64,000 bases of DNA, from contig QPGO01000002.1 of NCBI GenBank assembly GCA_008632985.1, positions 248,001-312,000 on the forward strand, written 5' to 3'. Shown piece after piece: positions 10,977 to 64,000 of this stretch (within the stretch, counting starts at the first letter, position 1; the number at the start of each line of letters is the position of its first letter). This DNA comes from Psammoneis japonica. Its lineage: Eukaryota. The position numbers and the translations under genes are program-made. The notes below the pieces were generated by a model that did not search any database, was not told the DNA's origin, and worked only from the letters and a program-made list of their open reading frames with translations.

Positions 10977-10977
10977 T

Positions 10978-16849: not shown

Positions 16850-17770
16850 CCGCCCACTGTCTGACATCCAGCAATTGGCATCATCAGCCATCAAGCATGC
16901 TCCACAAGACATCCAGCACCCAGCATCCATGACACACCACCTGGCATCCAGAAACCTCCATCCACCAGCCACTGGCTGCTGTCTGCCAGCAATCGTCAAC
17001 CATTCTCCATCATTCATCCACCATCTGCCATCCAGTGTGATCTGCCCACCATCTGCCACACCCCACCATCCATGATCTGATGTCTGCAGCCCATGTCCCA
17101 CATCCATCATCTGACATCTTGCATGTCTGCCATCCATGACTTGCCACCTGCCATGTGACATCCACCACACACCATGATCTGCCACCCATCATCATCCAGC
17201 ATCCAGCATTTGCCATCCACCATCAAGCATCCATGATCCTGTGCCATCCACCACCCACCTTCCAGCATCCATCATTTGCCATCCACCACAAAGCATCAAC
17301 CAACAAGAGTTTGGCATGTGCCATCCACCGCGCACCCTCCAGCAGCGGCCATCCACCCTCCAGCAGCAGGAGCCAGTGGTCAGCATCCAGCACACACCGT
17401 TTGTGGAGCAGCACCCATCATCCAGAGACCAGCGTCCAACATCTGCCATCCACAACTCCATCCAACATCCAGCATCCGTCATCTGCCATCCAACATCCAC
17501 AAACCACAAACCACCACCCACCATCCAGCACCCAGCACATCTGCCATCCAGTGCCCAGCATCATCCAGCACATCCAGTGTCCATCATCCAGCACCCAGCA
17601 CCCACCAGTCTCTGCCATCCACCTTCCATCATCCAGCACTCACCACTCACCATCCAGCCCCCACCATCAGAAACCCACCATCCAGCCCCCACCATCAGAA
17701 ACCCACCATCCACCATCTGCCATCCTCCACTCTCCACCATCCAGCGCTTGCCATCTGCCACTCACCTCCA
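16850..17770. repeat. Degenerate ~7-bp period minisatellite (CCATCCA/CCAGCAT-like), strongly C/A strand-skewed
   Basis: Runs such as catccagcatccagcat and ccatccagcacccagca over ~900 bp. Confidence 0.8.
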
Positions 17771-20519: not shown

Positions 20520-20715
20520 CGGACATAGACTAAAAACCGGCCACGGTCATTGTCCAAGCATTCTGTCATGTCTGCTCTAGAGTCTGGTCTCGCAACCTGA
20601 CAAAGTTCGACCTCCATCGCTGGAAACTCATTTTGGAGAACAGTGCGACACATCCAGGTTTTTCAAAATGTTCGAGGATCCGTAAATGCCCGTCCTCACA
20701 TAGTAGATCCATCCT
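20520..20715 (-). mobile_element. Terminus of a TIR DNA transposon (AGGATGGATCTAC family)
   Basis: The reverse complement starts AGGATGGATCTAC and aligns with 58260-58445 (cagcgat..ggtcgaactttgtc..agaatgctt). The partner end was not found. Confidence 0.7.
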
Positions 20716-23060: not shown

Positions 23061-23402
23061 GATTTGGTAATTTTATAGAAGAATGTTTTTCTTAGGGTCT
23101 ACCACTGCGGCTCCTCCAAAGAGTACCATAGGGCGTCGCACTTGGCGGCGGCGTTTGTTTGTAGCTCATGGTAGCCCTCTACTAGCTAGAGGTGTTTTGC
23201 GTTTGCTTCCTATCATAACCTTACCATACCGCGAGAAGCGAGCAATGACCGATCTTTGATTCAATCGACTCAATTCGATCTAACGGATGAAATGTATTAT
23301 TATCTTCGAATAAGCTTATCATATTTATCCATGTAACGCTTTTCCAACGGTTGGCGACCCAAGCTCACATTTTCATCGCCAAGCTCACTCAAAAAAAAAA
23401 GT

Positions 23403-25762: not shown

Positions 25763-26108
25763 ACATGCAGTATGTACACCCACGTCGAAGATACAGCGCG
25801 CATGGTGGATGCTGAAAAGTTGGACGTGCTGTCTCTACGAGATTTTCATACTGTAAGGGTAGGGCCCATAAAGGAATTCGATTTGTGTAGATCTTATGTA
25901 GATCTTAGTACGTTTGTTAAATCCGTTATATTCTGTAGAAGCGTACGAGTTGACAGGTAGTAGACTTTTAACGGTTCTGAGTTTCTTTTACATTCATCTG
26001 CGCTATGTTGGGGTTCGCAATAACACCGTTGGTTTATTCCGGCCACATTTTCTTCCGATTTCAGTTTTTCAGAAAACGGCAAACATCATCGCCGCCGCTG
26101 TCATCACG

Positions 26109-28435: not shown

Positions 28436-31400
28436 TATGCAAAGAACAGTAAAAGTGGCAAGAAGCTTTCTGGAAAGCGTTATCGCACGTTGGATGATCC
28501 CCTTGTAAGGCGCATCATGCAATGGCGAAACCCGTTTGCAGAGCAGTAGCGAAGCTTGAGAGATGCGCTGTTGACACCATGGAATTGTTGCGACAGACCC
28601 CCGTTAAATACAATCTATCCCTTGTTTTGGAACGGCAAGTAGGAAGTCCCGCAAAACTGGAGTTACTCCACAGGATGAAGCCATTCTAGAGCACCCCAAG
28701 AGAATCGACATTGGCCTCAATCGTGGGGATCTCCCGTCAATGATGAAACCGTTGAACGCATGACAACGGACGAGCACACGTCCCTCTGGTATACGGACGA
28801 GAATGACAAGGAGACTTACTCGGAGAACAGGGCGAGGATTCGTGGTCGTGAAAAGGTCAAGGACTCGGTAGAGACGAGCCAACACACTTGCCATGAGTCC
28901 GTGCATCATCGACTTGGAACATGATCTTTGAAGATGTCAACAAAACGGTCTCAAAGGACCTCCTCAAATTGCTGCTAGCACTCGTCGTACCACTGGCACT
29001 ACTGTCTCACGAGTCAGTCAGCTGTTGATGGAATGACTGACATGATGCCCGCCATCTTCTGCTCTTGCATCGAGACAGAGCTGCGTCAAACTCTTGGGTC
29101 CAATTTCTGACATGGACAGTGCAACAAAACTGCTGTAGATGGTCTCAGCTGCAGCAACTTCTTTACATGAAGATAGACAGAAAGGATCCGTGCGAGCAGG
29201 GCACTCTTGCTGCACACAACACTCGTCACCCAGTGTCGCCTCACGCCTCTCACGTGACGCGACATGCTTGAATCCCCTGCTTCTTCCCTTACACTGTCAT
29301 TCAGAGTCGTAAGAACTTCGGGCTGCCGACGAAATAGGGGCTTCCTGAACTGAACTAAACTGTTAACCAACCAGCTTTGGTTCATCCTTTTCAGCTTTGT
29401 TGGTGTCAAGTCTTTGATTGCTTGAGCTTTTTGCTTTTGACCTTGACTGGGATGAGGCTCGACAATCAAGAACTCTTCAAGGATCTCCTCTTTGGCCCCA
29501 CTCTTCTTCAATTCTTCAATGTCAGTAGATGTCCTCCTGATCCAGTGCTGCTCAATCTTGTCAGCAACATTTTGGCTGGTTGACACAAAATCCGATCCAT
29601 GCCAACATCCTTTTCCTTCCAAAGAACTTCATGTTGACTCTGGACATGGAATCCAATGACATGTTTGGTCCACCTTCCCAGTCCAATCTTTTGGGAATCA
29701 AGTTGTCTTAAATCCCTTGGCTTGCCATTTCTTGTTGATGTGAGGATCGTGTCATTTCATTCATTGCTTGATGGACCTGGCATGAAAAAAGCTTCCCGTT
29801 GATCAGAGGACAATCCAACAAAGATTTGTTGCTTCAAATGGCATGTCTTCTGCATGACCAAGATGTGCTCAGTGGTGTGCTTTGTGTGTCTCTCATTTGC
29901 CTGCCAGATGCCAGCTTGTGTAGCCTCCTCTGTTTTGGGTTGATCTCCCATTTCAATTCATTGCTTGTTTTCTCCCGAGTGCCCCAAACATGTTTCTTTT
30001 GTGCCATGTCTCGCTTTGCATGCTCTTCTTTCTCACTCTTGACTGCAAAAAGATTCTCCTTCACAACTGCTTTCTCCATGTCAGACCAACAAATGGTTGC
30101 ATCTCTCAAGAGATCTCCCAACATCCTTGTGCAGAGAGTTCCATGCTGCACTGCCTGTGATGGCACACTCAATCAAAGGGCACTCAAGCAGCGATCCAAG
30201 AGGTTGTTTCTGAATGAATGCTTGAAATGTCTTGCAACAAGAAGGCAATCAAAAAAATGCACCTGCATTTCATTCATTGTTTGAGAGCTTTTTTTTGCTT
30301 GCTCAATCATCCAGTTGCAAGCATTTGCTGCCAACACTTCCTCTGCAAAGGCAGCCGTCATGAACCAGGGGTGCACTGCAGCAGGAGCTGCTGCTGCGGC
30401 AGCTTCAACACACATTTCCGGGATGGCAGGGTTGAAAAAGTCAAGAAGAAATGACAGATTCTTCTCAGCTGCACTTTCTCCATCTGTTCCTGTGAATTGA
30501 TCCCCAGTGAATGAGGCACAATCTTCACTTGAAAGAATTGCTTTGTTGAAATTGTTGTTCTTCCAATGGGAGGGGCCTCCAACAACAACCAATTTTCTGC
30601 AATGGCGCACAGGTTTCATTGAATCTTCATCCAACATCCTGTCCATCATCTCTGCCATGGCTCCATCTGCCAAAACGAACACAGACTCTTCTGACATTGC
30701 GACTGCCTGCTGCAAGTGCTTTCTCAAACACTTCCATTTGGGTGTCAGCTTGGCAAGTCAATGCACCAGCAACACTGTGCACAGTTCCCCTCAAGCCAAT
30801 GTCATGTTCTAAATGGGACAAGGACAAAGACAGTTCTTGCTCCATGCAGCATCAACTTCAACAACAGTGCTGACAATGTGATCTTTGTGATCATCCTCCT
30901 CACAAGAACAAAGGCTTTTGATGTCTTGAAGGAATGCGGTGGAGAGCACATGCTGTTGCACTCATCTGTTCCCCAAGGCATTGTGCCAAGGTTGTGAAGA
31001 ACAGCAGCAAAATTGGATGGCACCACTTCTCCAATGTTGTGTGTGCAGCTCTTGCTTGGCAAGAAAACTGGTGGTGCTTTGTCACATCATGTGTGCTCTG
31101 CTTCATTTGTGTTCTCCAGTCAGCGTCATTGCAAGCAAGCGGATGGTCTTGATTGCAGGGCTGCTTGCCAACTGGTGGTGCCTGCACCAACCTTGCAGTC
31201 TGTTCAGCTGAGCTGCCCTTGCCATCCTTGAAGTTGCAATTGTCTCAAGAACTCATTAGAGGCGTGTGCATTCCAAGGTCTGTGCATTGAGTTATTTCCT
31301 CTGCCACCCTCCTGGACACATCAATTGAGAGTGTGTTTTGTGAGACTTGGTCAATTGCGTCCAAAGCAAGAGATCATGTGGTTGAGTTGGTTGGCTTCCC

Positions 31401-40404: not shown

Positions 40405-41422
40405 TGGTGCACACAACATGGGGAACCACTTGTTCCTGTTTTTTGAGCAGCACTGGTCAGCTTTGTTGCAGCCAACAACTTTTTTCAGCCTGGAGCTTGT
40501 CAAACACCCCTTTTGGAGCAGCAGCCAACAATGACTCTCACTCGGCTGCCAAGAGGGGGTGGCTCATTGTTTGTTTTTAATCAGCTTGACATTTCAGCAC
40601 ATTTGCAAAGGGCTGATGTGGTTGACAAGCTCCATTGAGCAGCTGCAACACCACCCCCTTTTGGGGATCTTGTCAGCAAGTTGCTGGTGCTGTGGGTCAC
40701 TTTTTGATGTGTTCTTGCTTGAGGTGCCTTGGGTGCATCAGATGTGTCTTGTGATGCAACAACAGACCAGACTGCTGCTGCCACATGAGGTGCTGATGAA
40801 GTCAAGAAGGTGTGCTGTGTGCCAGCAAAGATGAGGAAAAATTTGCCCTGAGCTCACACCAGCGGAGCTGGGTGCTCTTGCTCCCTGTTTTGTGGCAGCA
40901 GCGCTGGAGTGTGGGGTGTGGGGGAGTGCCTGGGTCCACCAGTGAGCTGGCTGCGTGCCTCAGTAGTTCCGAGTGAAGCCTGCCTTCTCGTGGTGGAATG
41001 TGCTGCATGTAAAGAAGGCAAATTCCAAAATTCATAAAAGATAAGTCAGCACCACAGACAGGCCGATGAAATGATGACGTCGCGTGAGATGTTTTTGGCG
41101 GGACAGGAATTTGAAAAACGCGCGTACGCGCGCACGCGCCGAATTCGAAAAAGATCCGTTGGGCGTGTAGAAACAATACATGATTCTACGGAGAATCCAC
41201 TTTGTGGTACATAAAGTCACGTAGGTTCTACGGAATGCATCAAAAATCGAGTCAAAAGCATCACATCGCCATGCGTCACAACTCAACAGCATTGACAACA
41301 TTTGACGTTGCATTGATATCATTAACAGGATGAACTTCTCCAAAGGCGCTCTCTCCGCAGTGACTGGCGGAGCCAACGACAATAACAACGACGGGAGCGA
41401 CTCGGAGGGATTGCGATCGCCG
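40405..41422. repeat. Inverted copy of 11931-13028
   Basis: Reverse-complement homology. Confidence 0.9.
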
Positions 41423-42449
41423 CATTCTTCCGTCGACGAGTTGTTCTCACCGCGTTCCAACAACACCGCCGACGAGCTTGCATCTCTGCGTTCGAATGGC
41501 ACCGAGGAAAGAAAGGTGAGATTGTTTAACTCAGTACCGTTAGTACGCGTTCGCTTGTCTTCTCGCTCATCATCACTCGTGTCGCATTGTTTGTTCTTAT
41601 GGACAGCATTCTTTCACTGCCGTTTTTCCTGACGAGGACGTTCCAACGGATGAGGCTCTCTTCACGCAACCAACTGCCAACCGGCACCAAGACAGTCCCG
41701 CCGCCATGATGACTCCCGGACAAGCCCCTTCTCGTTTTGCAAGGACGTTCACTCCAGAAGTGTACAAGGAGATTGGAGAGTTGTTGAAGACTCAGGTACG
41801 AGACGAAGACCAGGTGATTGACTTTCATGTGAAACAGCAAAAACTCATGGAGACCAATCAGAATCAGATGAACACTTCTCTCGTAAAGGTTGAGGAACAC
41901 AACCGACAGCGCCAGCGGTTCAAGGAGCAGCAACTTGATTATCTGATGAACGCAAGCACTACACCAACTCCCAACAAGCGTTTCAAGTCGAATCATCCGT
42001 CGTCTGGATTCACGTCGAACGAGTTCAATGCAACCTTACCTTCGGCAAAGTCGGATGGTCCAGCTCCATTCAGGCAGAACGTGTCTCCCGTCTTCAATGC
42101 AAATAATGATTCTATGAAGAAGAATGTCAACTTTGGACAATATCACACTAGGAATCTTGATTCCCACCACACGTTTCGCATGGATGACTACGGTGTTGAT
42201 ACGGTCCAGAAGGAGAAGGAAAATGAACCGAATGAGGAGGCCGGCGTTGCCACTCTGGGTTCCAAGCATGTGGTTGCATTTGCCAAGGGTGATATTGTGT
42301 ACTGCACAAAAGATGGCAAGAAATATAAGGCGGAGATTCTCGATACTTACAAGGATGACAAGCTCGATCCATATTACTTTGTTCGTGTCTTCAAGCCCAC
42401 CAGACCCGTTGACAAGGACACGGAATCTAAATACCTTACCGCCTCTTAG
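41330..42449 (+). CDS. ~342-aa chimeric family member with C-terminal Tudor-like domain; intron 41516-41606
   Basis: Exon 1 (41330-41515) splices GTGAG..ACAG in frame to ORF 41706-42449. The C-terminus FAKGDIVYCTKDGKKYKAEILD..DPYYFVRVF fits the Tudor/royal-family pattern. Confidence 0.75.
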
Positions 42450-45400
42450 ATACGAGACAGAATTGAAACATGATCAATAGACGGATACGAAACGGAGTAG
42501 CGCGTATAATGCATTGATTATAATAAGGCACAGTTTTCATAATGGACCTTACTAGTTATCTGGCTCGTTTTGTTCGTAGCATAGTATACCGGTACCGTTT
42601 TTTCGTGGAGCGTCGCCAGATGATAAGGGTTTTGCGTATTCAGCTGCTCTTATCTTTCGTCTTGGACATCTTGATCACTCCCACGCTCGTCTTGTGGATA
42701 CTTTTATCGATAAGTCTAGACAAATAATTCTTACATCTTTCATAGCTTGTTCTTGAATGATAATCTTGTTCCCAGATTCGGGAATGAGATGATCGGTAAG
42801 ACTCAGAAAATTGAATATCGCTAGCAGCATCCAAGATCCTTCACCTTGGAGTCGCGTATTCAAAGAGTCACTATATCCCTTTCGCTAACCGAAGCGAAGT
42901 CGGCGTGCGATTTGTCTTTGGATTTACACAGTGCTCGTGAACACGCACCAAATCACAGCGAGGAGCAGTTTCTAAAGAAATCATGGACATAGCACAATGG
43001 TGAGAGACAGCTATACGATTAGCTTCCCTTTGATAAGTTCCACTCACCATAACGAAATCCCGATCCGATTTGCGCAGCGGCAAACGGCATTTGTTGAATA
43101 TTTGCGTCCGAGAGACTTTAAATTTACATAATGACCCTGTGCAATTTCCGGCCTCAAATAGCAAACGCTCGAACCTTCGGGTCCGACGCTGGTCTTGATA
43201 TAAGGCTCTTCAGAAAAAGGATTTGCCTGCGTCATGGAGCCGAGTGTGTCACACATTCCCATCCTCAAGAACTGGACGACGCAATGCTTTTCTTTCTCCC
43301 CTCAAGCGCGCGTAGTGTACATTACTAAGAATCTTTGACGAAGAATCTTTGACCTTATTGAACAGCGGGTTGATAAAGATGCCATACTTTGTCCGAGCTA
43401 CTGCAAAGCTGTCGATTCGATTAAAACTCACCGAGACGATCACCCCTAGACAGCAGAGCCCTCTCTCTAGATTGCAACTCTAAACTTTCTATTCTGCCTA
43501 CCAGCTTTTACCTTTCACGATTCGATAATGGCAGACGCTCTCTGGTTCCAGATTGGAGTTTCTGGTCTTGAAAACTCGCCGTGCTTGCGCAACAGCATAG
43601 TATGTCGCAACACCCCATCGGTCTTTGCTGGCCTCCAGTACGAACACGTACAGTCGTATGCTCAAAATCGTGGTTGCAACCATAGAAAGATAGGATTGAA
43701 TAGCCACATCATATTCAAAGTAGATATTGGACCCATTTTTTGGAACACACCTTTGTTGACAAGATTGCCTGGTGCCTGTTTCTGTTTCGAAAGCGCCTCT
43801 AATCCGATCACAAATGCCTTACGCTCTGAAAAGAGATGCCAACCATGCATTTTCCAGTCATTCTGCGGTTTCGGTCCCTTTTTTTCGGTACACAATGACT
43901 CAATCGCAGGGCTTCATTGTACGCAATTCTAAGAGCCGCGCCGGTAACAACTTCTGACGCCGTTGATTGCAATAGGAAACCTGCCCATTTCTTTTTCATT
44001 CCATACGAGATCTACCGTTTTGCTTACAGGAATAGCCGACTGGGCAAGTAAAGTTCAGAAAGCTGCTCCTGTGGAGACAAGAACAAAACGGCGTTGAAGC
44101 AACAGGCTTCGCACACGGCGTGTTAAAGTTCTGGATGCTCTACTCAGCAGCGTATTGCTTACAATACCATTCAGTATCAATACAACTACAAAGAATGAAA
44201 CGAAGCGATACATCCAAGCGGAGAATGTGCTTCAGCGAGAGGCTACCGGTATTTCTGTTTCTTGAAATCCTTATGTCGTTCAGATCCTCTAATTTTTTTT
44301 AACTTCAAAAATTGAAATTTTGATCACAACGGATGCCGCCTTATAATCGAATGCTTAAAACCTGAATATCCAATTGAAGATTTGACCGTTAGCTTTACAT
44401 TGAATATGAGGCTTGCCCGTTAACTTGTATTATATATATATATATATTTTTAAATTTTCAATCAATTTTAATTGAAGGTCTGCTGCCGGAACGAGCGAAG
44501 TTGACGCCGAACAAAATGACACAACAACTTGAAACTACGCTGCACCGCAAACCACGACACTTCCACCGGCACTGTAGTAGAGAGTAGAGGCATAACGCTT
44601 GACCTCGATGACATGCCATAGAGGCAACAAACTTTCAACAGCAAATCGCAGCACACAGTCTGACGTCGTCTCAGGTCATTGCAGCAGCAAAACGGTTTTC
44701 TCTCCGGTCCGGTCGGTGTAGCGCTCACCGCATTTTCTTCACTCTAGCGCGGAACTGCGGCTTTACATTGAAGAAATATGGACTTGAATGCGTCTCTTCT
44801 CACGGCCATTAGAATTGGCACTGCAGACGATGTTCGCAGCGTTCTTCAAGGTGGAGCAAACCCCAACGCAACTGTGACTCTCCGCCCACCCGCGGACGAA
44901 GACGATGATCCGCTTGTTGTCAAACCAGTCTTTTTTGTTATCATCTGTGATGATGCAGCCGATCGAGACGCCAAACTTCAGGTCTTGCTGGATGCTGGAG
45001 CAAGTCCGACGGATGAGCTGGAAGGTTACACACCACTGGGTTCTGCATGTTTGGCCGGTCGTCCGTCCCTGGTGCAAATTCTGTTGTCTCATGGAGTGGA
45101 TGTAAACAACCAATGCTCTCCTCATGGGACACCATTGCATGAAGCTGCATTCCATGAAAATGCTGAAATTTGTCTGCTGTTGTTGCAGAATGGTGCTGAT
45201 GCAAATTCAAAGGATCCCGACGGTTTGTCGCCGCTTCACGCTGCAACGCACCGTGGAGCCGTAGACGTGGCGCGAGTGCTCCTGGCGAACGGAGCTCGTA
45301 TTAATGACGCCACAAATGATTTTTCTCTAACGCCTTTGCACTTTGCCGGTGTTGCAGACATGGCAAGATTGCTCGTGGAACACGGAGCTGATTTGAGCGT

Positions 45401-45753
45401 TACTTGCGTCCGAGGACAAACGGCGTTGCAGCGCGCACTTAGGAAGGGCAAACATGCGGTGGTCTCTGTCTTGATGGAGGCGCATGGGCAGAAACTATTG
45501 AAGTGTGATCATCTTCATCCGATGTTATGGGCCCATGTCTTGGCCAAAGTGGGAGAGAGGAGCACGGACATGTCTAGAGTGGGCATCAATTACGCCTTAC
45601 TTCGCGAAAAACCGGATCTGTTTGGCTACAAGAATGCCGGCAGAAAAAGAAAGCAACCCGATCGTTCTGTTCCAGAAGGGTAAAACAACACAGTATGGCA
45701 GTATTTGTTGTAGCTGATACTCTTTATATATAGACATGCTATGGGGAGTGTAC
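41655..45753 (+). repeat. Segmental duplication copy 1 (copy 2 at 55443-60437)
   Basis: Collinear high identity over ~4.1 kb. Copy 2 carries two extra TIR insertions. Confidence 0.95.
44778..45683 (+). CDS. Ankyrin-repeat protein (301 aa)
   Basis: Repeated G.TPLH.AA..G...V..LL..GAD.N motifs. C-terminal LWAHVL..YALLREKPDLF motif of a kind common in diatom proteins. Confidence 0.92.
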   Translation: MDLNASLLTAIRIGTADDVRSVLQGGANPNATVTLRPPADEDDDPLVVKPVFFVIICDDAADRDAKLQVLLDAGASPTDELEGYTPLGSACLAGRPSLVQILLSHGVDVNNQCSPHGTPLHEAAFHENAEICLLLLQNGADANSKDPDGLSPLHAATHRGAVDVARVLLANGARINDATNDFSLTPLHFAGVADMARLLVEHGADLSVTCVRGQTALQRALRKGKHAVVSVLMEAHGQKLLKCDHLHPMLWAHVLAKVGERSTDMSRVGINYALLREKPDLFGYKNAGRKRKQPDRSVPEG

Positions 45754-46004
45754 CTTTTGTGGTTGTTACTGCTTATGTTTCCGCGCAGCGCTCTGGGGTT
45801 GCCACCTGCACCGAATTTCATCCGCATTGACTGCTTTTGCTCTTGCTTCTTGTCGATCACTATTAGAAGGAGAGAGACTCGCAAACCATGGCGAATAGTC
45901 TAGTGATCCTACTATTATATATGCTACAAATCAAAAAGTCAAACCATTACTCTCTGGCTTAGAGTAGAAACACGTTTGAAATATTTCGCTCCGGAGCTGC
46001 AATT

Positions 46005-46203
46005 TGTCAACCCTTGATTCGTGGTTCTGGTGCGACAGAAACGAGCATGCGGAGAGTGGCAGCGAAGCGGGAAACATTCCCATCTCTCGAGGTGCCCGCA
46101 ATTCATTGATAATATAGGCTGCCACGACTCGAACATTTCCTGAAAGCTTCGATCTGTCCATTTTGCCCAGCAGAGAGCTTAAGACTTCCCGTAGAGCCGA
46201 GTC
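46005..46203 (-). repeat. ~200 bp non-coding module, unmutated copy, between ~55-bp direct repeats (45912-45966, 46264-46322)
   Basis: Homologue of 14331-14531. Flanks share aaaccattactctct.gcttagagta. Confidence 0.8.
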
Positions 46204-46339
46204 AATCTCGTCTCCACCAATGCTCAGCTTTTCAGCTGAACTTCTTGTGATAGCCTACAGTTGCTATTAATATGCTACGTAACAAATTATAAAGCCAAAC
46301 CATTACTCTCTAGCTTAGAGTACCATTATTATCTGTATA

Positions 46340-47390
46340 CTATGCTACGAGAGAAGCATTGTGCTTGTTTTCTTTTCCACTCTCGGCCAGCGGTCCTAGT
46401 TCGACATCACCACCGCTTGGATGATCCGTATACGGTTCATCGGGAAGCATCTTTTCCATTTCTTCATCCTCCGGTGGCGGTGGTGCTTGTTGTTGGTGAT
46501 GTCCGCCGCCTCCCTTTTTTCCAAAAAAGTTGAGAACCATGGCAGATACACTCACGACGAGTCCGGTAAATTGGATACCATTCAGCGAATGTCCATAAAA
46601 GTAAATGGACGCCACCAGTGTCGTAACCTTGCGTGCCAATCCGATAATGGAACACGTCAATGCCCCAAATTTGGCGATTGTGACAAAAATAAAAACCTGT
46701 CCGAGTGCACCACTCAAACCGAGTGCCACCAATAAGAATCCCATTTCTTGAAACATTTGTAAAAGGACTTGAACTTGATTGTGAGTACAAGGAGTGATAC
46801 TCCCGCCAAGATGGTTTTGCCCATTTGAATAGCATACATTAAACCAAAGGGTCCCGCCGGATGGACGCGAGACTGATAAAAAAGAGTAGAATACCAAACA
46901 TCTCCATTGTAGAATACACACATGGTTGGAACAAGCATAGCGTTAGAAAACAGCCATAACAACAACACCGATCCGACGGATAGTCTAGTTGAGACTGATA
47001 AACAAGAGTAAAATACCAAACATTTGAAATGACACGCCACCGACATCTTCGTCGGCACTGCTTTTTTTTACTCCACTTGGAGTCTCCACTGTAGAAAAGA
47101 TACATGGTTGGAACGAGAGCAGGTAGTGTTAGAAAACAGCTATAACAACAACAAAACGGAGCCGACGATAGGTATTTGTTTGTTCCATACTATACACACT
47201 CACCCTCCCATAAAGAGCGCCACACCACCAACAATCATGACGACCTTGATATATTTCTTGAGCGGATATTTCTTTCCCATGAGAGCTCCCATAATCATGA
47301 CGGGTACAGGCTTGCAACTCTTGGCCAATACTTGAATGGGATAAATGACATAACGGAGCGACCGGACCGAACAAAAGGTACTGCTCATAG
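46340..47390 (-). pseudogene. UDP-galactose/UAA-family nucleotide-sugar transporter (SLC35B1/HUT1-like), 5'-truncated and rearranged
   Basis: [25 protein letters not shown] and GALGQVFIFVTIAKFGALTCSIIGLARKV are hallmark UAA motifs. The middle exon is partly duplicated and broken. Confidence 0.85.
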
Positions 47391-47889: not shown

Positions 47890-48890
47890 TCGAAATCACA
47901 AATTCTCCCTCCGGTGCGGTGGGTGTGCAATGTCTTTATTGTTTGTTGTGGTGGATGGATCTAAAGGCGTGTGGAATGCCCGAACCAGGCAACAACAGCT
48001 TGCCCACACAAGCAAGGTCAAATTGGTTGGAACACTGGAAGAAGCCTGTTTCCAGCCACGCGTCAAACGGATTGGTGCCGTGGAATGTTCTGTCAAATCA
48101 AGGCAACCCGACACGACCAACTGATGCAAAAAACCTTGTGCCATGTTTGACATTCACACCCAACATTCTTTGTCACATGCAGCGCGTGTCTGGGGCTTCA
48201 CTCTGCCTTGTTCAATCTACAACATCGCTGGAGCGCCCCTTCCAATTGAAGCATGTTTTCTGTGCACACGGCATCCAACAAATCCATCTGCACAGAATGG
48301 AACTTTGCACAACAAAGCCAAGCCTCTTTTGGATTCCTTGCACAATTTCCATTGACGACGAAACAAGAGTCGCAAAAATCGGCCCAAGGGATGTTGAGAT
48401 GTCACCGCCGCCAAATGTTGGGCATGAATTCCAGCGGCAGCTCAGCTTTGGTTGTTCAACGACAAGCTCCGAAGAGAAAGTCAGGGCTGAAAAACCCAAG
48501 CCCTGTGGACGACACTTTGTGGCACATGCGTCAAAATGATGACAAGAAGTGAGAAACAACACCAAAGCTGCAATGGCGCATCACAAAAATCCATCATGTT
48601 GGTGCTGCATTCTCACAATTTTTGCGCCGTGCCTTCAGCCACAAACCCGCCTCGATGGAATGAACTCAATGCCAGCACCACTGGACCATCATGTTGCTTG
48701 TGTAAAAGCTCCAAATGCTGCAAAAAGAAACGGGAAAATGCGGCAAAAATGGACACAGATGTCAGCGATGCAAAGTGGGCCATTGTCGCGATGGTTTTCT
48801 TTTTTGGTTGTCTTCGCCGCGCGCCTTGGAGGGTGCCATGCTGCAGGTTGATGCATGCAGCGGAAGTCGGTGTCTGTGCTTTCCTGGTGA
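47890..48890. other. Small TpA-depleted block D
   Basis: Only about four TA in 1 kb, flanked by TA-normal sequence. Confidence 0.8.
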
Positions 48891-49307
48891 CCCTGTACCC
48901 GGTAGAAGAAGTGCTAGACCCTACGCAGTTGCACCCAGCGTTGCATTCTTTCCGTTTACCTCCACAGCACCTGCCGGCAGCAGTCATCGCTCGGCTGAGA
49001 CGCACGACGCACGTACAACCATTGTTTGTGCAGGGCGGGCGCGCGCGCGCGGACTGACTTCCGCTGCGGTCTTGCCGTCACAAGTCTACACGATCATGGT
49101 ACTGTTTCTACGCTGGTACTAAAAATGTCGCTCTATCTACAGACTCAAATCTGTGTTGCTTTCTTTTTGTGACGTGTGCCATTATTAACGACCCGATGCA
49201 TTGAACCAAAATTACTTATGCTCGCATGGGCCTGCTACCGCCCCAGCACGACTTCGGCAATAAAAAATGATTGCGTCATCCACATCAACGATTCAAAAAT
49301 TTGACGG

Positions 49308-54154: not shown

Positions 54155-55124
54155 ATGGAGCAATCCACTTGATGAAATTGCAACTCTGCACGGAGCAGCA
54201 AAGCCGATCATGCTTCAGAGACTTCGCGAAGTTGCAGCTTTTAAAAACTAACAAAACCTTGCTTTTCCAGGCAGTCTGCGACGTCCACCCCGAAACACTC
54301 GGGTCGGCTCTCTCTCTCTCTCTTTCGATGCCGCATCATAATTCTACCCCGCAATTTTCTCATGGTTCTCTTACAAAACATTGTCACGGCGGAGAATTTA
54401 TCTTTTACATTGAATCTGTGTGTGCAATCGTAGAGCCCTGCGATCATGCCGGTATGACTTGAGAGATTTTGTATCCCGCCTCGCTCTCGTTGCGATTTCA
54501 GCAAAATGATGAGACTCCTGGCCTCCATTGGGCGTGCTGGGTTACAATGTACGTGAATCATGAATGATGATGGCGACACCAACCCATGACGATTGTAAAT
54601 ACAGTGCCAAAAGACACTCTTCTATTAGCTGGTAGTCTCTCTACTCTCTAGTTAGAGGATGCAGGATGCAGGTGGTGTCTGGTGTCTTCTGACACAGAGC
54701 TGAGAGTGACTTACCATGGCCTTCCACCTCACTACTCTGCGCGCGCGCAACGGTCGACGCATAGACTCACGATGGAGAGTGCTTCGACGCGACGCGACGC
54801 ACCTACGTACCGGTACCAATCGAGCCTCCACGATACGACGGACTGACACCGTGTTGGTGTCGCTGGATGGCGCCTACCTATGGCGCACGGATTTTATATT
54901 TGACACAGAGCAGGATAGATCAATTATATTTAGTATCTAGATAAATTTTATTATATAAAGGATATGTTTTTCGAAGGCAATGAAGATAAAATAAGACCAA
55001 CGGACTCACAATTCTTACGTGAGTTTCTACGTGACGAGGTCAGCGTGATGTACATTTAACGGTTACACAATCAGATTTTGTTTGTTTTCAGTTTGAAACT
55101 CTCACACATAGTTCGTCGTTGTCA

Positions 55125-56261
55125 ATGGACGAGTCCGACAAGGAGAGCAACGCATCGCAAGGACAATCTTCCTTGGAAAGGAAGAGAGAGCAGAGCCGCA
55201 AGAGTTCGACCAAGCATCGAGAGAAGAAGAAACGAGAGAAGAAAGAAGCCGAGGAGAAGAAGAAGGCGGAGGAGGAGGAGAAAAAGGCCAAGAGTCGCGA
55301 ATCTAGCCGTAGACACCGCGAGAAAAAGAAGCTGGAAGCGCTACAGAAAAAACAGCACGAAATGGACAGGTTGAAGAAGATTTTCTTAAGTCAGGACTCC
55401 CAGCAAGCCCACCCTCAGGAAGAGGCCCGTCATGAGTCGGGCGCTCTCTTCACGCAACCGACTCCCAACCGTTACCATCAAGGCAGTCCCGCCGCCATGA
55501 TGACTCCTCGACAAGCCCCTTCTCCCTTTGCAAGGACGTTCACTCCAGAAGTATTCAGTCAGATTGACGAGTCTTTCAAGAGCTCGAAACGGAACGATGA
55601 GAGGGCAACCCAGATTTTGGATCAGCATCAGCAACAGATGTATCAGCATCAGCAACAGATGTATCAGCATCAGCAACAGATGTATTCTTCGCGCCAAAAG
55701 TTTGAGGAACACAACCGAAAGCGCCAAGGTACCGAAGAACAGCATCGTGAGTTCCTGATGAACGCAAGCACTATACCAACTCCCAACAAGCGTTTCAAGT
55801 CGAGTCATCCGTCGTCTGAATTCACGTCGAACGAGTTCAATGCAACCTTACATTCGGCAAAGTCGGATGGTCCAGCCCCATTCAAGCCAAACGTGTCTCC
55901 CGTCTTCAATGCGAATCTTGATTCTACGAAGAAGAATATCAACTTTGGACAATATCACACTAGGAATCTTGATTCCCACCACAAGTTTCGCATGGATGAC
56001 TACGGTGTTGATACGGTCCAGAAGGCGAAGGAAAATGAACCGAATGAGAAGGCCGGCGTTGCCACTCTGGGTTCCAAGCATGTGGTTGCATTTGCGAAGG
56101 GTGATATTGTGTACTACACCAAGGATGGCGAGAAATATAAGGCGGAGATTCTCGATACTTACAAGGATGACAAGCTCGATCCGTATTACTTTGTTCGTGT
56201 CTTCAAGCCCACCGGGTCCGTCGACAAGGACACGGAATCCAAATACCTCTCCGCCTTTTAG
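55125..56261 (+). CDS. 378-aa protein: two bZIP-basic-like segments, (QHQQQMY)x3, C-terminal Tudor-like domain
   Basis: Intact ORF with RKREQSRKSSTKHREKKK and KAKSRESSRRHREKKK. 21-bp repeat x3 at 55621-55684. The C-terminal ~270 aa are paralogous to the 41330 gene. Confidence 0.8.
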   Translation: MDESDKESNASQGQSSLERKREQSRKSSTKHREKKKREKKEAEEKKKAEEEEKKAKSRESSRRHREKKKLEALQKKQHEMDRLKKIFLSQDSQQAHPQEEARHESGALFTQPTPNRYHQGSPAAMMTPRQAPSPFARTFTPEVFSQIDESFKSSKRNDERATQILDQHQQQMYQHQQQMYQHQQQMYSSRQKFEEHNRKRQGTEEQHREFLMNASTIPTPNKRFKSSHPSSEFTSNEFNATLHSAKSDGPAPFKPNVSPVFNANLDSTKKNINFGQYHTRNLDSHHKFRMDDYGVDTVQKAKENEPNEKAGVATLGSKHVVAFAKGDIVYYTKDGEKYKAEILDTYKDDKLDPYYFVRVFKPTGSVDKDTESKYLSAF

Positions 56262-58260
56262 ACATGAGACAGAATTGAAACACTGTCAACCGCAGACGGA
56301 TACGAAACGGAGTAGCGCGTAGAATGCATTGATTACAATAAGTTTGTACTAGGCAGAGTTTTCATAATGGACCTTTACTAGTTATCTGGCTCGTTTTGTT
56401 CGTAGCATAGTATACCGGTACCGTTTTTTCGTGGAGCGTCGCCGGATGATAAGGGTTTTGCGTATTCAGCTGCTCTTATCTTTCGTCTTGGACATCTTGA
56501 TCACTCCCACGCTCGTCTTGTGGACACTTTTATCGATAAGCCCAGATAAATAATTCTTACATCTTTCATAGCTCGTTCTTGAATGATAATCTCGTTCCCT
56601 GATTCGGGAATGAGATGATCGGTAAGATTCAAAAACTGAATATCGCTAGCAGCATCCAAGATCCTTCACCTTGGAGTCGCGTATTCGAAGAGTCACTATA
56701 TCCCTTTCGCTAACCGAAGCAAAGTCGGCGTGCGATTTGGCTTTGGATTTACACAGTGCTCGTGAACACGCACCAAACCACAGCGAGGAGCAGTTTCTAA
56801 AGAAATCATGAGCATAGCACAATGGTGAGAGACAGCTATACGATCAGCTTCCCTTTGGCAAGTTCCACTTGCCATCACGAAATCCCGATCCGATTTGAGA
56901 AGCGGCAAACGGAATCTGTTGAGCATTTGTGTCCAAGAGACGTTTCAAATTGACAAAAAGACCCTGTGCGTTTTCCGGCCTCAAATATCAAACGCTCGAA
57001 CCTTGGGGTCCGATGCTGGTCTTGAACATGAGGCTAAAAGGCTCTCCAGAAAAAGGTTTTGCCTGCGTCATAGAGCCGAGTGTGTCACACATTCCCATAA
57101 TCAAGAACTGGACGACGCGATGCTTTTTCCATCTCCCCTCAAGCGCGCGTAGTGTACACTACAAAGAATCCTTGACGTTATGGAACAGCGGGTTGACAAA
57201 GATGTCATACTTTGTCCGAGCTACTGCAAAGCTGTCGATTCGATCAGAACTCACCGCGACGATCACCCATAGACAGCGGAGCCCAGATTGCAACTCTAAT
57301 CTTTCTATCCTGCCTAATGGCAGACGCTCTCTGGTTCCAGATTGGAGTTTCTGGTCTTGAAAACTCACAGTGCTGGCGCAACAGCATCGTCTCTCGCAAC
57401 ACCCCATTGGTCTTTGCTGGCCTCCAGTACGAACACGTACAGTCGTTTGCTCAAAATCGTGGTTGCAACCATAGAAAGATAGAAATATAGGATTGAATAG
57501 CCACATCATATTCAAAGTAGATATTGGACCCATTTTTTGGAACACACCTTTGTTGACAAGATTGCCTGGTGCCTGTTTCTGTTTCGAAAGCGCCTCTAAT
57601 CCGATCACAAATGCCTTACGCTCTGAAAAGAGATGCCAACCATGCATTTTCCAGTCATTCTGCGGTTTTGGTCCCTTTTTTTCGGTACACAATGACTCAA
57701 TCGCAGGGCTTCATTGTACGCAATTCTAAGAGCCGCGCCGTAACAACTTCTGACGCCGTTGATTGCAATAGGAAACCTGCCCATTTCTTTTTCATTCCAT
57801 ACGAGATCTACCGTTTTGCTTACAGGAATAGCCGACTGGGCAAGTAAAGTTCAGAAAGCTGCTCCAGTGGAGACAAGAACAAAACGGCGTTGAAGCAACA
57901 GGCTTCGCACACGGCGTGTCAAAGTTCTGGATGCTCTACTCAGCAGCGTATTGCTTACAATACCATTCAGTGTCAATGCAACTACAAAGAATGAAACGAA
58001 GCGATACATCCAAGCGGAGAATGTGCTTCAGCGACAGGCTACCGGCGGTACAAGTATTTCTGCTTCTCTTGAAAGCCTTCGTCGCGTTCTAGAGGTACGT
58101 ACTATCATCCTCCTCCTCTTTTTTTTTTACTTCAAAAATTGAAATTTTGATCACAACGGATACCGCCTTAATCCAATGCTTAAAATCTTCATATATAATT
58201 TTAGGCTTGCCCGTTAACTTGCATTATCGATATATCCATTATTAATTTAATCAACATTAA

Positions 58261-58771
58261 GGATGGATCTACGTGCTGCGGTCAGTTTTTTGGGAGCTCG
58301 TAATTTTTATAAAAATAACCCGGATGCATCGTAGTAAATGCGCGCGCGTTCGCAAAAAAAATTTCAGCGATCGGTCGAACTTTGTCCGTTCGCCAGACAC
58401 CCTAGAATGCTTAAACAACAGGTGTGACCATGCGCGCGTTTTACCTTAACGACTATGGATATGTCTGTAGCCAGTCAAATGCCACTTGTCGGCATTTCCC
58501 GGAAAGTCACCGCCAATCTCCCACAAGAAGCCCGATTTTAGCGAAAACCAGCGGTTTTTTCAACCTGACAACAGGGCACAGGTCGACAAGTGGCATTTGA
58601 AGCGCCAAATGTGCAGCTCACAGCCCTCTCACAGCCCCCCATGAGGGTTTGACATGAGGGTTTGACGAACGCACAAGTGTTCGGGGGTGTTCCGAGGCAG
58701 GTCAAAACAACACGGTGAAGTGCGGGAAATGCGAGCCATTTTAAATTAGACTGCAGCACGTAGATCCATCC
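58261..58771. mobile_element. Non-autonomous TIR element (~510 bp) inserted at TTAA (Kolobok-like GG..CC ends; a TA-TSD reading is equally possible)
   Basis: TIRs GGATGGATCTACGTGCTGC.GTC / GAC.GCAGCACGTAGATCCATCC. Absent from the paralogous site at 44468 (ttttaattgaagg). Flanks are ttaa and tcaa. Confidence 0.9.
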
Positions 58772-58869
58772 TCAACTGAAGGTCTTGCCGGAACCAAGCG
58801 AAGTTGACGATGAACACAATGACACACTGCGCTGCACCGCAAACACTTCCACCGGCACTTCAGCAGAGA

Positions 58870-59259
58870 GACGGGCTTCAGTCCTGGGCGGGACTCTGTG
58901 TGACATTGGGCCAGCAGAATTCTGCGTGCAAGCTCCGCAGTGCGAGAATTTGGTCAATGGATGCATTTGTCTTCAACATCAAATGAACGGCCAAGTTTGT
59001 GGTGCAATTGTGCCTCTTGCCACTCGACGTTTTTGCAAGTGCGCCTGCCCTGCACGATTCTCAAGACATTGTAGAATCGCACTGCAACAAAAAATGTCAA
59101 AAGTTGTTGGATGGATCGCTCAATGAGTGTGCCGTAAAATGACACAAAACATCGAAAAAATCACGCAGAAATCTGCGCGCGCTACATGCGATGTAATTCA
59201 AAAAACTGTCTGTGTCACAGTTCAGCAGTGCGAGGTCCCACCTAGACCTGGAGCTCGTC
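58870..59259. mobile_element. Non-autonomous TIR element (390 bp) with 4-bp TSD GAGA
   Basis: Ends GACGGGCTTCAGTCCTGGGCGGGAC / GTCCCACCTAGACCTGGAGCTCGTC. The empty site gtagagagtag is at 44578. Confidence 0.85.
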
Positions 59260-59457
59260 GAGAGCAGAGGCACAACACTTGACCTCGATGACATGCCACA
59301 GAGGCAACAAACTTTCAACAGCAAATCGCAGCACACAGTCTGACATCGCCTCAGGTCATTGCAGCAGCAAAACGGTTTTCTCCCCGGTCCGGTTGGCGCA
59401 GCGCTCACTGCATTTTCTTCACTTTAGCGCGGAACTGCGGCTTTGCATTGAAGAAAT

Positions 59458-60366
59458 GTGGATTTGAACGCGTCTCTTCTCACAGCCATTGGACGTGGCA
59501 CTGCAGACGATGTTCGCATCATTCTTCGAGGTGGAGCAAACCCCAGCGCAGCTGTGACTCTCCGCCCACCCGCGGACAAAGACAATGATCCGCTTGTTGT
59601 CAAGCAGCCTTTTGTGTCATCATTTGTGACAATGCAGCTGATCCAGAAGCCAAACTTCAGCTCTTGCTGGATGCTGGAGCAAGTCCGACGGATGAGCTGG
59701 AAGGTTGCACACTGCTGGGTTCTGCATGTCATGAAGGTCGTCCATCCCTGGTGCAAATTCTTTTGTCTCATCATGGAGTGGATGCAAACGACCAAAGCTC
59801 TCCTCATGGGACACCATTGCATGAAGCTGCACTCCATGAAAATGCTGAAATTTGTCTGCTGTTGTTGCGGAATTGCGCTGATGCAAATTCAAAGGATCCC
59901 AACGGTTTGTCGCTGCTTCATGCTGCAACACACCGTGGAGCCGTAGTTGTGGCGCGAGTGCTCCTGGCAAACAGAGCTTGCATCAATGACGCCACAAATG
60001 AATGTTCTCTAACGCCTTTGCACATTGCTGGTGTTGCAGACATGGCAAGATTGCTCGTGGAACACGGAGCTGATTTGAGCGTCACTTGCATCCGAGGACC
60101 AACGGCATTGCAGTGCGCACTTGGGAGGGGCAAACATGCGGTGGTCTCTGTCTTGATGGAGGCGCATGGACAGAAACTGTTGAAGTGTGATCATGTTCAT
60201 CCGATGTCATGGGCCCATGTCTTGGCCAAAGTGGGGGAGAGGAGCACGGACATGTCTGGAGTGGGCATCAATTGCCCCTTGCTTCGCGAAGAACCGGAGG
60301 ATCTGTTTGGCCACAAGAATGCCGGCAGAAAAAGAAGCAACCCGATCGTTCTGTTCCAGAAGGGTC
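59458..60366 (+). pseudogene. Hypermutated, frameshifted copy of the ankyrin gene
   Basis: Aligns to 44778-45683. ATG>GTG, Tyr>Cys/His changes and indels. Confidence 0.92.
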
Positions 60367-60499
60367 AAACAACACAGCATGGCAGCATTTGTTGTGGCTG
60401 ACACTCTCTCTACACAGACATGCCATGGGGAGTGTGCTGCCCAAAGTTTGCAACTGCAAAACAACATCCATGGTCTGCATGTCGAATTTGTGTCACTGC

Positions 60500-62700
60500 A
60501 AGGGTGTCCCAATCAGCGCAACAGATGAATTGCTGAGAACTGTGCTGGATGAATTCTCCAGTGGTGGGTTGTCTGTCACCCGACAAGTGCCCTCTTCTTG
60601 AACTTTCATGTCCAAGCTCAAGTCAATGTTGAATGGCATTGTGGCCCCGGCACTGCAACAAGTTCCCCTTGAGTCTGTTTTCATCATCAACCAATTCAAG
60701 AGCAACCCGCTGCAGGAGCTCTCTCCTGGCATCCCTGTGTGTGACTTTTCCCTCCAACTGCAGGACCTTTTTGACGATCCCCTTTTTGCCGATCTTTCAA
60801 ATCTCGATGTTCCTCCTTGTTCACATTGGTCTCAGGTGCTCTCCAGTGAACCCATGTCAGACAAGAGTGGCAATTGGAAACTTTGTGATGATGCCAAAAT
60901 GAAGAATGGAGAAACTCACAGCACCTGTTTTCGTGGCAATGACGTTCCCCGCTGTCCGCAGATCCTTTCATGTTTTGGGTTTGTGCTGCACCAACAAAAC
61001 TGGGAAAGGACAGGTTGCACCTCATTTGATGGAGCCATTCGTTTCCTCTGCAACTCTCATCAAGGCATCTGCCTGTCATTGTTTTGAAGCATGGCATCCT
61101 CTTGGATTCATTCCGAAACACACAGGTTGCAAAACAAAGAACCCCGTTTTTGGGTTGAATGTCAGCAGAAATTGTCGCCGCATTTTGTCTGTCCTTCTTG
61201 CATCTGTTGCCTCCTGTCTGCCGCATCTGACTTGGCAACCAGCATTGTTGCAAGCGCATTGTTGCCGCAAAAAATCCTGCCACATCTGTCATGCCTGTCA
61301 CACCTCCCGGACATGCAGCAATGAACCGCTGCATTGCGGCAGGCATTTTTCTCAGGAAGTGATGGAGCGTTTGACTGCTGCAGCTCTTGGACCACCACCT
61401 GGTTCAATGGACAGTCCGTGGCATCTGTTTGTTGAACCACAAATGGCCACAGTGATGTCCAAGGCCAAAGCTGAGTCAATCCATTCCAAGGGACACAGTG
61501 CAGTTTTCCGGTGCACGAACATTTGTTCCTCCATGCTTCACAAGGTGTTCGGCCAACACACGGTTGACAACTCAACATTTCCTCTTCGAACAGGAGACAA
61601 TCATCAGGGCATGTTTGGGTTTGCGTCCCCTGACCCAATGCACATGTTCCAAGGTGGCACACCAGTCCCTCAGATGCTCTCCGCCATTGTCAATGATTTG
61701 CCCGACTCCGCCAAAGGCCACTTGAATGATTTGGCAAACCGCACGTTTGGATCTCAGTGGTGCAGACCCAGTCAGAGAACAATGTTTCCACCAGTTGTCT
61801 TGCAAAATGGCTTTTGCACCTTGTGTGGTTTGACCTGTGGCCAAAAGATGGGGAAGCTGTTTGCGACAGTGCCAGCGGGTCAGACTGCAGAGGGATGGGG
61901 CATGCTCCATCTTTGTTGCCATCCAGATTTTGACAAGACAAAGAAAAACAAGCCTCAATGGATGCAAACCAGAAATGTCAACCTGGATCAACACACAACT
62001 CTGTGTCCCCAGCAACAATGATTCCTCTGTTTCCAACATTTTCAGATGCTGTGCAGACCGTCGCCAGCCACTGCACTCACAGGCAACTTCTCATGACCAG
62101 CCGTTGGTCTGCTCAGAAATTGAAAAGGAGTTGCCTCTTACATTCCGCCAAAGCCTAAAGAGCCTCGACCCAGAGCTGGCCAGTCATTCAGCGGACTGTG
62201 ATGATGTGGATCATCTGTTGCTTTTGCTCAACAAATTGTTGTTGCTCCACTCCTTTCACAGCTGTGGTTCTTCCCTGCACTCACAAACCAATTGCGTCAA
62301 TGATGTTGAATGTTGCCTTGTTCTTTTGATGTTGGTGAAGGCACACATGGATGGAAAACATCAAAAGTTCCACAATTTGCTTCACTTGACAGCTGCTCTT
62401 TGTTGACTGGGCACATTTTCTGGATGGACCTGCCAAGCCTCACAAGGTGAAGAAGAGTTCACCAGTCAGCTTGCAACCCAACTGCATGAGCAAAGTCTGT
62501 TGGAGAGAGCAAACAACTTGATTGTCCGCCCCCTTGCCCCTGATGATTTGCCACCCAGCACAACATTGCACCACAACCTGGGGCACACTGTGTCCACAGT
62601 TGACCGTGTTGACAAAACATTTAGAGGAAAGCACCAAGGCAACCAACTTGTCTCTTTCCGGCTCCATGTCTGATCAAGAGCTCTCGGATGACAAGATGTT
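60500..62700 (+). mobile_element. Degenerate Plavaka/CACTA-like transposase
   Basis: Motifs across frames: PVCDFSLQLQDLFDDP, TNKT..EPF, AWHPLGFIP, DPMHMFQGG, RPSQRTMFPPV..NGFCTL, KFHNLLHL. These match Plavaka-type transposases once Cys/His are read back as Tyr. Confidence 0.65.
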
Positions 62701-64000
62701 GTTTGTCCTTGACATGAAGGATGAGTGGCCAGAAATCTTTTTAAATGGTGACATGCACTCAGGAGGCAGGGGTGCACATGAAGTGAGACAAATCGTCAAA
62801 ACAAAGTTTTTTTCCTCACATGATTTTCCTGAATTCCATCAACGTTCTTTGGCAGAATGCTGCAAGGTTGGAACATGACCGCACACTCTCTGGGTCAGTT
62901 GTGTGATCGCATTTAGCAACAAATTCCTCTGGACCATGCCATTTGTTGACTGCGAAGAACTTGATCCTGTGTTTGAATCCATGTTTCTTTGTGGCAGCAG
63001 GGCACAACTCCTTGCATCGCATTGGCAAGAAGACTGTGCCGTTGTCATGCAGGAAAATAAAGTCCCATTTCAAACCATGCTTCTTTAGACAGTGCAGGTG
63101 GCAAGAGAGCTGGTCCATGCACACCATGGTCACTGACATTTTGTTGTTGCGCATCAGTCTCCGTGCAGCTTCACACATCTTCCATGCCTCCTCCAACTCA
63201 ATTCCACCGGAATCAACAACAAGATGGCTTTCCAACGAGGTGCCAACAGAATCCGTTTTCATCATCATCATTCAAAGTGGCGCTGGCAGCATTCTCAGCA
63301 GGACAATTCCCCAGGTGGGCACCTGATTGGATGTGCAAAGTGCCTCTTGCACTTCCCAGCTGGACTGCTTTCCGCGTTCTTTCTGGCGTGCCCATTTCCC
63401 TTTTGTTTCTTTCCGTCTGTTGTCAACTGACAAGCTGTGTCCTTTTCTTGTTCTGCAGAGTTTGGGTTGCGCAGCACTCTGTCTTGCTCCTCCAAAAAAC
63501 AAACAAACCAAGATGGACAATCCTGGGCTTTTGCTGATGTTCTGCCCACCTTGGATGGGAGGAACAGTGAACCTTGCCAAGGGCACCACTGCATTGTGCC
63601 TCTTGCACCAGGCGCGCACAATGCACTTGAACAGCTCACCTCTTGGTTGAGACAGAGCAAGGAGAACTCTGTCCCGGGATGGCAAGGAGACAGCAATTGA
63701 CACAGACCAAGCTGGCAGCGGTGCTCCGTTGTGCTCCCTGCAAACCAACCCCTTGCACTCTGCAACGTGTTGGAGACAAACAGCTCCGTTGCAGCAACTG
63801 CAAAACAAAATCCAAAGCCACGCAATGCACCCAAGCATTGTTGTTTGAGTCTTGTCCTCCTTCATGATCTTGGTGCACCTTCCGTCACTGCGATCAGATG
63901 TTGCACGCATTTCTGCCAAAGACAGAATTTTTTCTGTTGCCTCAGCCATTTCCTCTTGGTTGCTGAGTGGGTGGAGGTTGATTGCATCCAAGCATTCCTG

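Follow-up and report, generated by a model that had tools for sequence, protein, structure and literature searches.

Near-complete loss of TA dinucleotides in a diatom contig appears to follow transposon-bearing chromosome domains rather than paired duplicates

In a 64,000-nucleotide stretch of the diatom Psammoneis japonica (contig QPGO01000002.1, positions 248,001 to 312,000; G000:C3:248001-312000 in our numbering; hereafter the window), DNA of normal composition alternates with blocks that are low in CG and nearly without the dinucleotide TA (2.7 TA per kb inside blocks versus 42 per kb outside, 144 kb measured). One of three copies of an ankyrin locus has lost its TA where it is enclosed between a high-copy miniature inverted-repeat transposable element (MITE) and a Plavaka-like transposase relic, and the same part of the other two copies is intact. 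On balance, we think it probable that the mutator takes chromosome domains, and not paired copies, as its target. In the model that we lean towards, silent chromatin seeded by transposable elements (TEs) would recruit an A-to-G activity specific for TAY (Y, pyrimidine), all DNA inside would be rewritten, and a barrier on the host side would fix the edge. A previous sequence-only reading of the window had described the one-sided loss and ascribed it to position or to spreading from TE chromatin; the observation is real, largely as described, and is partly confirmed here, and its interpretation is partly supported.

The ankyrin locus is a set of three direct copies rather than two. Copy A spans 41655-46868 and copy B 55091-60435; copy C lies outside the window, at 70518-76095 in window coordinates (G000:C3:318518-324095), and was used to polarise changes.

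41655-44395, forward strand: proximal part of copy A; TA kept
44577-45751, forward strand: distal part of copy A; TA kept; 98.6% identical to copy C
44772-45683: open 303-aa ankyrin frame in the distal part of copy A
55091-58256, forward strand: proximal part of copy B; TA kept; open 408-aa frame at 55035-56261
58257-58775: MITE1; TTAA target, right target copy reading TCAA; 27-nt inverted arms
58469-64000: TA- and CG-depleted domain, extending past the window to 67716
58776-58869, forward strand: host piece between both MITEs; matches 44470-44580; TA changed to CA/TG
58870-59259: MITE2, about 390 bp; very high copy; TA-poor
59257-60435, forward strand: distal part of copy B; frameshifted ankyrin pseudogene
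60437-61943, forward strand: degraded Plavaka-like transposase relic, a 5'-truncated copy of a dispersed element

Across the distal part (44577-45751 versus 59257-60435), 27 TA of copy A read TG or CA in copy B, none shows the reverse and 4 are held in common. Copies A and C differ there at 16 of 1173 columns, and 91 differences are private to B. Upon polarisation with all three copies, 26 of the 30 TA common to A and C were found changed in B (4 kept), as were 21 of the 65 common CG (to TG or CA), and no TA that B shares with one partner has been lost in the other (A or C) over this part. The distal part had been called saturated in the TE-adjoining copy only: the loss is indeed one-sided, but it is near-saturated (87%) and extends to CG as well. 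The proximal part of B, by comparison, has lost 1 of 97 TA (versus 26 of 30 distally; Fisher p=9e-22). Its alignment to copy A (41655-44395 versus 55443-58220; 87.7% identity by BLAST) holds 96 TA in common, while 15 are confined to A and 8 to B through transitions, as expected from the claim that 41655-44470 and 55443-58260 keep TA in both copies. The “slight loss” suspected near 56900-57400 is not specific to B, being common to copy C, to which proximal B is 99.9% identical over 55443-57442. Over 42400-43650, all 12 differences read CA and none TG, and 5 of the 12 stand in the spared context YTAR (R, purine), so that ordinary C-to-T changes in copy A more likely account for them.

The boundary between these two states lies within MITE1. 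Host DNA of copy B touching this element retains 25 TA in 300 bp, the left 214 bp of MITE1 keep 15 TA and the right 305 bp keep 4, the domain edge at 58469 being internal to the element (212 bp inside). Beyond it no gradient is seen across the distal part of B (7/8, 3/3, 3/5 and 13/14 TA lost per 300 bp), and the host DNA abutting MITE1 is untouched, which gives the proposal of spreading from TEs by distance no more than partial support. The linker between copies A and B is mostly TA-normal. A piece of a UAA/EamA transporter (46343-46942, reverse strand), within the duplicated block, is also TA-normal.

Substitution rates from the normal to the depleted copy, compiled over 14 pairs of at least 85% identity, show a narrow specificity. 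A changed to G at 230 of 590 positions after T (39%), compared to 25 of 1010 after A (2.5%) and 12 of 801 after G (1.5%); the 5.4% seen after C is matched by 8.6% in reverse, and CA changed to TA at 36 of 919 sites. Among the target trinucleotides, TAC changed at 56%, TAT at 48%, and TAA and TAG at 23% each, and surviving TA are mostly YTAR (retention 0.54 for TTAA, 0.00 for ATAT). The A-to-G/T-to-C change is restricted to TpA, as in hypermutation of the type known from the rhizarian alga Bigelowiella natans. Error-prone polymerase eta, whose motif is WA (W, A or T), was rejected as a source because AA is barely affected.

To place the locus in its surroundings, we segmented C3:8001-752000 (744 kb) into two states based on TA outside the YTAR context and classed the columns of all 248 self-matches of at least 250 bp. 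This portion of one contig, 0.8% of the assembly, serves as a contig-scale substitute for a genome-wide test. Segmentation delivered 44 domains totalling 381,041 bases (51%). Low-copy pairs of at least 400 bp, at least 80% identity and at least 400 columns normal in both copies numbered 18 (82–99% identity, 0.5–5.3 kb; tandem and distant, direct and inverted), and these kept TA in both copies (2502 TA kept, 182 differing, counted in both directions). Among them are a tandem pair of 2 kb whose members lie 360 bp apart (95.6% identity) and a pair of 4.7 kb at 88.6%. Of the TA found on just one side in one-sided pairs, 504 belong to the normal copy and 10 to the depleted one, and the normal partners hold 590 TA in 14,315 columns (41 per kb, against 42 per kb in normal DNA). 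That duplication alone is no trigger, as the sequence-only reading had it, is therefore well supported at contig scale by these 18 clean pairs and by partners of normal TA density, and targeting by position rather than by homology pairing is supported for low-copy duplicates. Furthermore, columns reading TG in one copy and CA in the other are in excess for pairs inside domains (1760 of 97,047, 18 per kb) compared to pairs outside (230 of 86,288, 2.7 per kb), so copies inside were hit independently after duplication.

Both MITEs at the ankyrin locus are dispersed repeats (71 matches for MITE1; 1530 candidates for MITE2, of which 40 were scored), and the relic belongs, as a truncated copy, to a dispersed family with 74 matches, whose other copies reach about 630 bp further upstream; the locus anatomy given before, two MITEs and a transposase, stands. 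The relic cuts copy B at 60435 and aligns to protein P0010 (E=3.8e-104), for which Atlas features return Plavaka clusters in 22 of 30 matches (best 0.95); Pfam, including the Plavaka transposase profile PF18759, gave no match for 60437-61943 or for P0010. The ratio of observed to expected TA is below 0.1 at 13 of 14 other loci of the relic family examined. For MITE2, 12 of 15 other matches in the 744 kb lie wholly inside domains, a count biased because the query itself is mutated. For MITE1, 3 of 11 other copies are intact, one of them between depleted flanks, as expected of young insertions. On the side that faces normal DNA, MITE1 is protected in three copies with a normal left flank, which kept 12–15 of 16 left sites versus 5–7 in four copies with a depleted left flank, but in the mirror case (L011) there was little protection (8 of 20 right sites kept). 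The MITE1 copy G000:C60:128510-129019 (L006) has full TA between TA-free flanks; it is a young insertion into an old domain and is useful for dating.

These families bear on an explanation that we regard as unlikely, in which a homology trigger that needs a minimum number of copies (through pairing or small RNA among them) acts on the repeats and then leaks from MITE2 and the relic into the ankyrin piece. The domain cores identified are all multi-copy, every base of distal B lies within 600 bp of a repeat, and two MITE1 copies (L002 and L010) are partly affected though their flanks are mostly normal. Positional effects are moreover compatible with such a trigger acting among high-copy repeats: in fungal repeat-induced point mutation (RIP), mutations spill over into single-copy DNA for 930 bp or more (PMC2973834), and along the DIM-2 route the linker that separates direct repeats is mutated (10.1101/344036), as the cited passages have it. 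Against this, multi-copy DNA can be normal here: two of eight ribosomal DNA loci checked, three intact silicon-transporter genes (95–96% identity) and a tandem array at C3:169-174 kb all keep TA. The intact MITE1 copies, the spared TE ends and the mostly normal A-B linker also speak against it, the last of these disfavouring a Neurospora-type linker model in particular, as does the single-copy status of the target in B. natans (bioRxiv 10.64898/2026.01.13.699255, in the part cited). Selection may contribute to TA retention in the ribosomal DNA and in the intact silicon-transporter genes.

A second duplication in the window (pair 1), likewise taken by the sequence-only reading to keep TA in both copies, departs in part from that description.

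1-1402, forward strand: first copy of pair 1; TA kept
20878-21956, forward strand: main part of the second copy; TA kept
22721-23067, forward strand: second copy past an insertion; 7 of 13 TA lost
14833-20682, forward strand: leftward continuation of pair 1; low-copy; both paralogs TA-free, affected independently

The claim holds for 1-1072 versus 20878-21956 (48 TA in common; one-sided 2 and 1), but not for 22721-23067, where 7 TA are lost by transition, 6 are kept and 2 differ in reverse. This piece adjoins a 764-bp insertion, and loss beside an insertion fits the idea behind the sequence-only reading, not its description. The pair is also not clean throughout: it continues leftward into 14833-20682, whose partner is the DNA just left of the window; both copies are devoid of TA there, and their four aligned pieces hold 50 TG-versus-CA columns. 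A relic of the MITE1 family lies within this continuation near 19300-19530, so it does not represent a TE-free double hit. The insertion itself (21957-22720) has an apparent 3-bp target repeat, lacks terminal inverted repeats and is TA-poor at its right end.

Domain edges were found 210–640 bp inside TE ends, as at 58469 and at 5142, the latter 640 bp inside a repeat starting at 4500. A 1-kb domain with normal flanks (47938-48895) corresponds to a repeat of high depth with loose ends at 47944 and 48897, depth being a rough measure from short contigs of two DNA runs of one sample and thus not independent support. CG density, which was not used by the segmentation, falls from 55 per kb outside to 40, 24 and 16–22 per kb inward (50 edges), which would fit a slower decay of methylated CG; CGCG peaks just outside edges (4.0 per kb versus about 1.8). 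Paralogs within 500 bp outside a domain showed no extra TA loss (11 of 151, 7.3%, versus 139 of 2043, 6.8%, farther away), which speaks against a simple dependence on distance to a TE. In three of five homologous pairs spanning an edge, the edges lie within 90–270 bp of the same homologous position. One inverted pair at 77% identity, 11931-13012 and 40419-41422, spans a domain edge at nearly the same position in each member; its outer 400–460 bp keep TA and CG and hold a CGCG-rich motif with A/T tracts.

Edges that stop inside TE ends facing host DNA would also be expected if mutation were the default in all silent DNA and active genes or promoters protected their islands, TEs then mattering as silent DNA and the two MITEs by severing the ankyrin copy from its upstream region. 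A silicon-transporter gene (L044; G000:C264, about 9500-12000) indeed forms a 2.5-kb island of normal TA content flanked on either side by TA-free DNA, and two broken silicon-transporter copies inside domains (L132 and L133) have almost no TA. We nonetheless judge this explanation improbable: the indel-rich, apparently non-coding stretch of the A/B pair keeps its TA, and long open frames lie within 500 bp of an edge no more often than of a random normal position (34 of 87 versus 45%, a crude test), so that distance to open frames gives no signal of protection by genes.

Contig C223 is collinear with the window from -5000 to 31700 at 97–99.5% identity (30 kb compared) and is probably the other haplotype. 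TA differences between the two were more frequent within 500 bp outside domains than farther away (19 of 118 versus 9 of 288, p=1.2e-5), clustering at two of five edges:

4744-4940: edge zone inside the end of the repeat starting at 4500; C223 has lost 6 TA that the window keeps, with 1 the reverse
28919-29382: edge zone in low-copy DNA; the window has lost 11 TA that C223 keeps, with 1 the reverse

Leakage outside the repeat was rejected for the first cluster, which sits inside the repeat end. Edge positions can be about 0.4 kb apart between the two haplotypes, a shift that gives the most direct indication of fronts advancing locally, and since TA changes differ between haplotypes, the process is recent.

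This recency also bears on a further alternative, that the clean copies post-date the process, were restored through gene conversion or stayed clean under selection. Recent exchange is real: proximal B and C differ by 2 transversions in 2000 columns, for which pair a post-dating of the process does apply, and copies A, B and C are mosaics, which suggests that they may meet and exchange sequence without mutation. Copies A and C furthermore carry an open ankyrin frame. Post-dating does not account for A versus B, as the untouched, apparently non-coding stretch 42450-43650 (the indel-rich one mentioned above) shows 2.6% transversions versus 2.13% in the affected distal pair and is thus at least as old. 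B's own diverged sequence beside MITE1 keeps its TA, and copy A keeps 15 TA at which a silent transition was available and 16 outside the frame. We therefore hold this alternative to be very unlikely, and largely refuted for the A/B pair.

The model of TE-seeded domains would run as follows. Transposons would seed a silenced, CG-methylated chromatin domain, and an activity tied to the silenced state would convert the A of 5'-TA to G, chiefly in TAY, working on both strands and at a few sites at a time; adenine deamination would be the simplest chemistry, and damage to the opposite-strand T would look alike. All DNA inside the domain is rewritten, including the enclosed host ankyrin piece, homologs outside are intact, and the edges are sharp, often a few hundred bases inside the TE end facing normal host DNA. 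Because the edges are sharp, lie inside TE ends and are shifted between haplotypes, a host-side barrier, and not TE distance, would set the limit. In favour of the model, the genome holds 27 matches to the C5 DNA methyltransferase domain, at least 5 of them near full-length with open frames. Spreading from TE chromatin would need such a barrier and is, to judge from the DNA itself, plausible but unproven.

Several points weigh against this model. All domain cores identified are multi-copy repeats, which leaves TE identity and high copy number confounded; low-copy DNA is affected, but always within or beside repeat-bearing domains, and no single-copy affected domain was shown among the domains of this genome examined. 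The sharpness of edges and the 504-to-10 asymmetry are partly circular, because domains were defined by TA scarcity. The 18 clean pairs contain two triplets, so some are non-independent, and they were not shown to be free of selection. The allelic status of C223 is read from its collinear identity, and the haplotype effect comes from two edges of five. A further cluster (26972-27484; 6 TA lost relative to C223, 1 the reverse) lies more than 1.5 kb from any domain and was counted in the far class of that comparison; it sits inside a 781-aa frame (25902-28247) and could reflect either a newly started focus or a mosaic of paralogs. Finally, DNMT5 was not identified among the C5 methyltransferase matches, none of which was assigned to a family.

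Other searches and loci are recorded here for completeness. Pfam gave 0 of 133 and then 1 of 72 (weak) matches for stop-to-stop frames of TA-poor domains, and 1 of 21 (weak) for frames taken from the copy of the element with fewest mutations, from its surroundings and from duplicated stretches. Word-index homolog searches with two element frames found no match, and Atlas no usable match for one. A copia-like frame 2 kb upstream on C312 was rejected as part of another element. Two element copies with 433-bp terminal repeats (G000:C3:63079-68296 and 358209-365203) were each affected independently, and in one of them an internal stretch remains TA-normal (31 TA confined to a single copy). In a tandem gene-like family at G000:C3:659919-705000, clean and saturated members adjoin, the saturated ones sitting in repeat-bearing domains. 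The genome has 24 silicon-transporter family matches, which mark it as that of a diatom, and a single 1511-aa frame at G000:C38:226311-230342 comprises three tandem silicon-transporter domains.

The closest known system is the TpA hypermutation of B. natans, which affects integrated DNA of nucleocytoplasmic large DNA viruses and virophages, has a single-copy main target and is ongoing at an about 1000-fold raised rate in mutation-accumulation lines (bioRxiv 10.64898/2026.01.13.699255, as are the further statements on this alga, all from the part of the preprint cited). Both systems convert TpA to TpG/CpA regionally, and the target need not be duplicated there nor, it appears, here; the clustering in foreign or mobile DNA is found here as well (44 domains in 744 kb, the tested cores being dispersed repeats), and a further likeness is that TE-related domains are over-represented in TA-poor coding sequences. 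Its authors propose an RNA- or epigenetically guided A-deamination, which resembles our model. Unlike that rhizarian, with its 124 clusters, the diatom has 51% of 744 kb affected, near-complete loss (2.7 versus 42 TA per kb), a TAY preference and joint loss of CG. The cited text holds no test on duplicates or edges; conversely, the rate was measured there and would here follow only by inference. This, the only paper found on the TpA mutator, leaves open the manner in which it reaches its targets.

RIP, as described for Neurospora and Leptosphaeria, shares dinucleotide-specific transitions on both strands, saturated repeats and access to nearby non-TE DNA; it strictly requires homology, and gene-sized repeats are recognised (10.1101/344036 and PMC2973834, in the passages cited). 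The present process is not RIP, since both the chemistry (A:T to G:C here, C to T, mainly at CpA, there) and the sufficiency of duplication fail: multi-kb tandem duplicates at 88–98% identity are clean and one-sided pairs are common. Of RIP-style leakage, enclosed host DNA is affected, yet paralogs show no excess loss up to 500 bp beyond the edges, and most of the linker between A and B is normal. In the diatom Phaeodactylum tricornutum, CG methylation is DNMT5-dependent and TEs are its main targets (PMC9998398); its TE-centred domains resemble ours, and CG loss inside domains would fit decay of 5-methylcytosine. The cited passages on P. tricornutum describe silencing and no TpA loss, and the CG loss here is known from sequence alone. 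No report of such a process in diatoms was found in the literature covered, most subscription papers lying outside that coverage.

Taken together, the results argue that the TpA mutator does not count copies, so that the organism can keep gene duplications while erasing transposons. Fungi with RIP are largely unable to keep gene duplications. The edges that differ between haplotypes offer ready sites for observing the process in action and for tests of methylation, histone marks and candidate deaminases, and a natural TpA-specific DNA adenine editor, if true, would matter for base-editing biochemistry. More tentatively, and with less confidence than in the targeting of domains, we suggest that diatoms could carry a homology-free, chromatin-guided DNA adenine editor acting at 5'-TAY, with about half of the contig rewritten and an advancing front that differs between both haplotypes within one cell line. 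It would be a genome defence unlike RIP, shared with a rhizarian alga and possibly old within the group of stramenopiles, alveolates and rhizarians (SAR).

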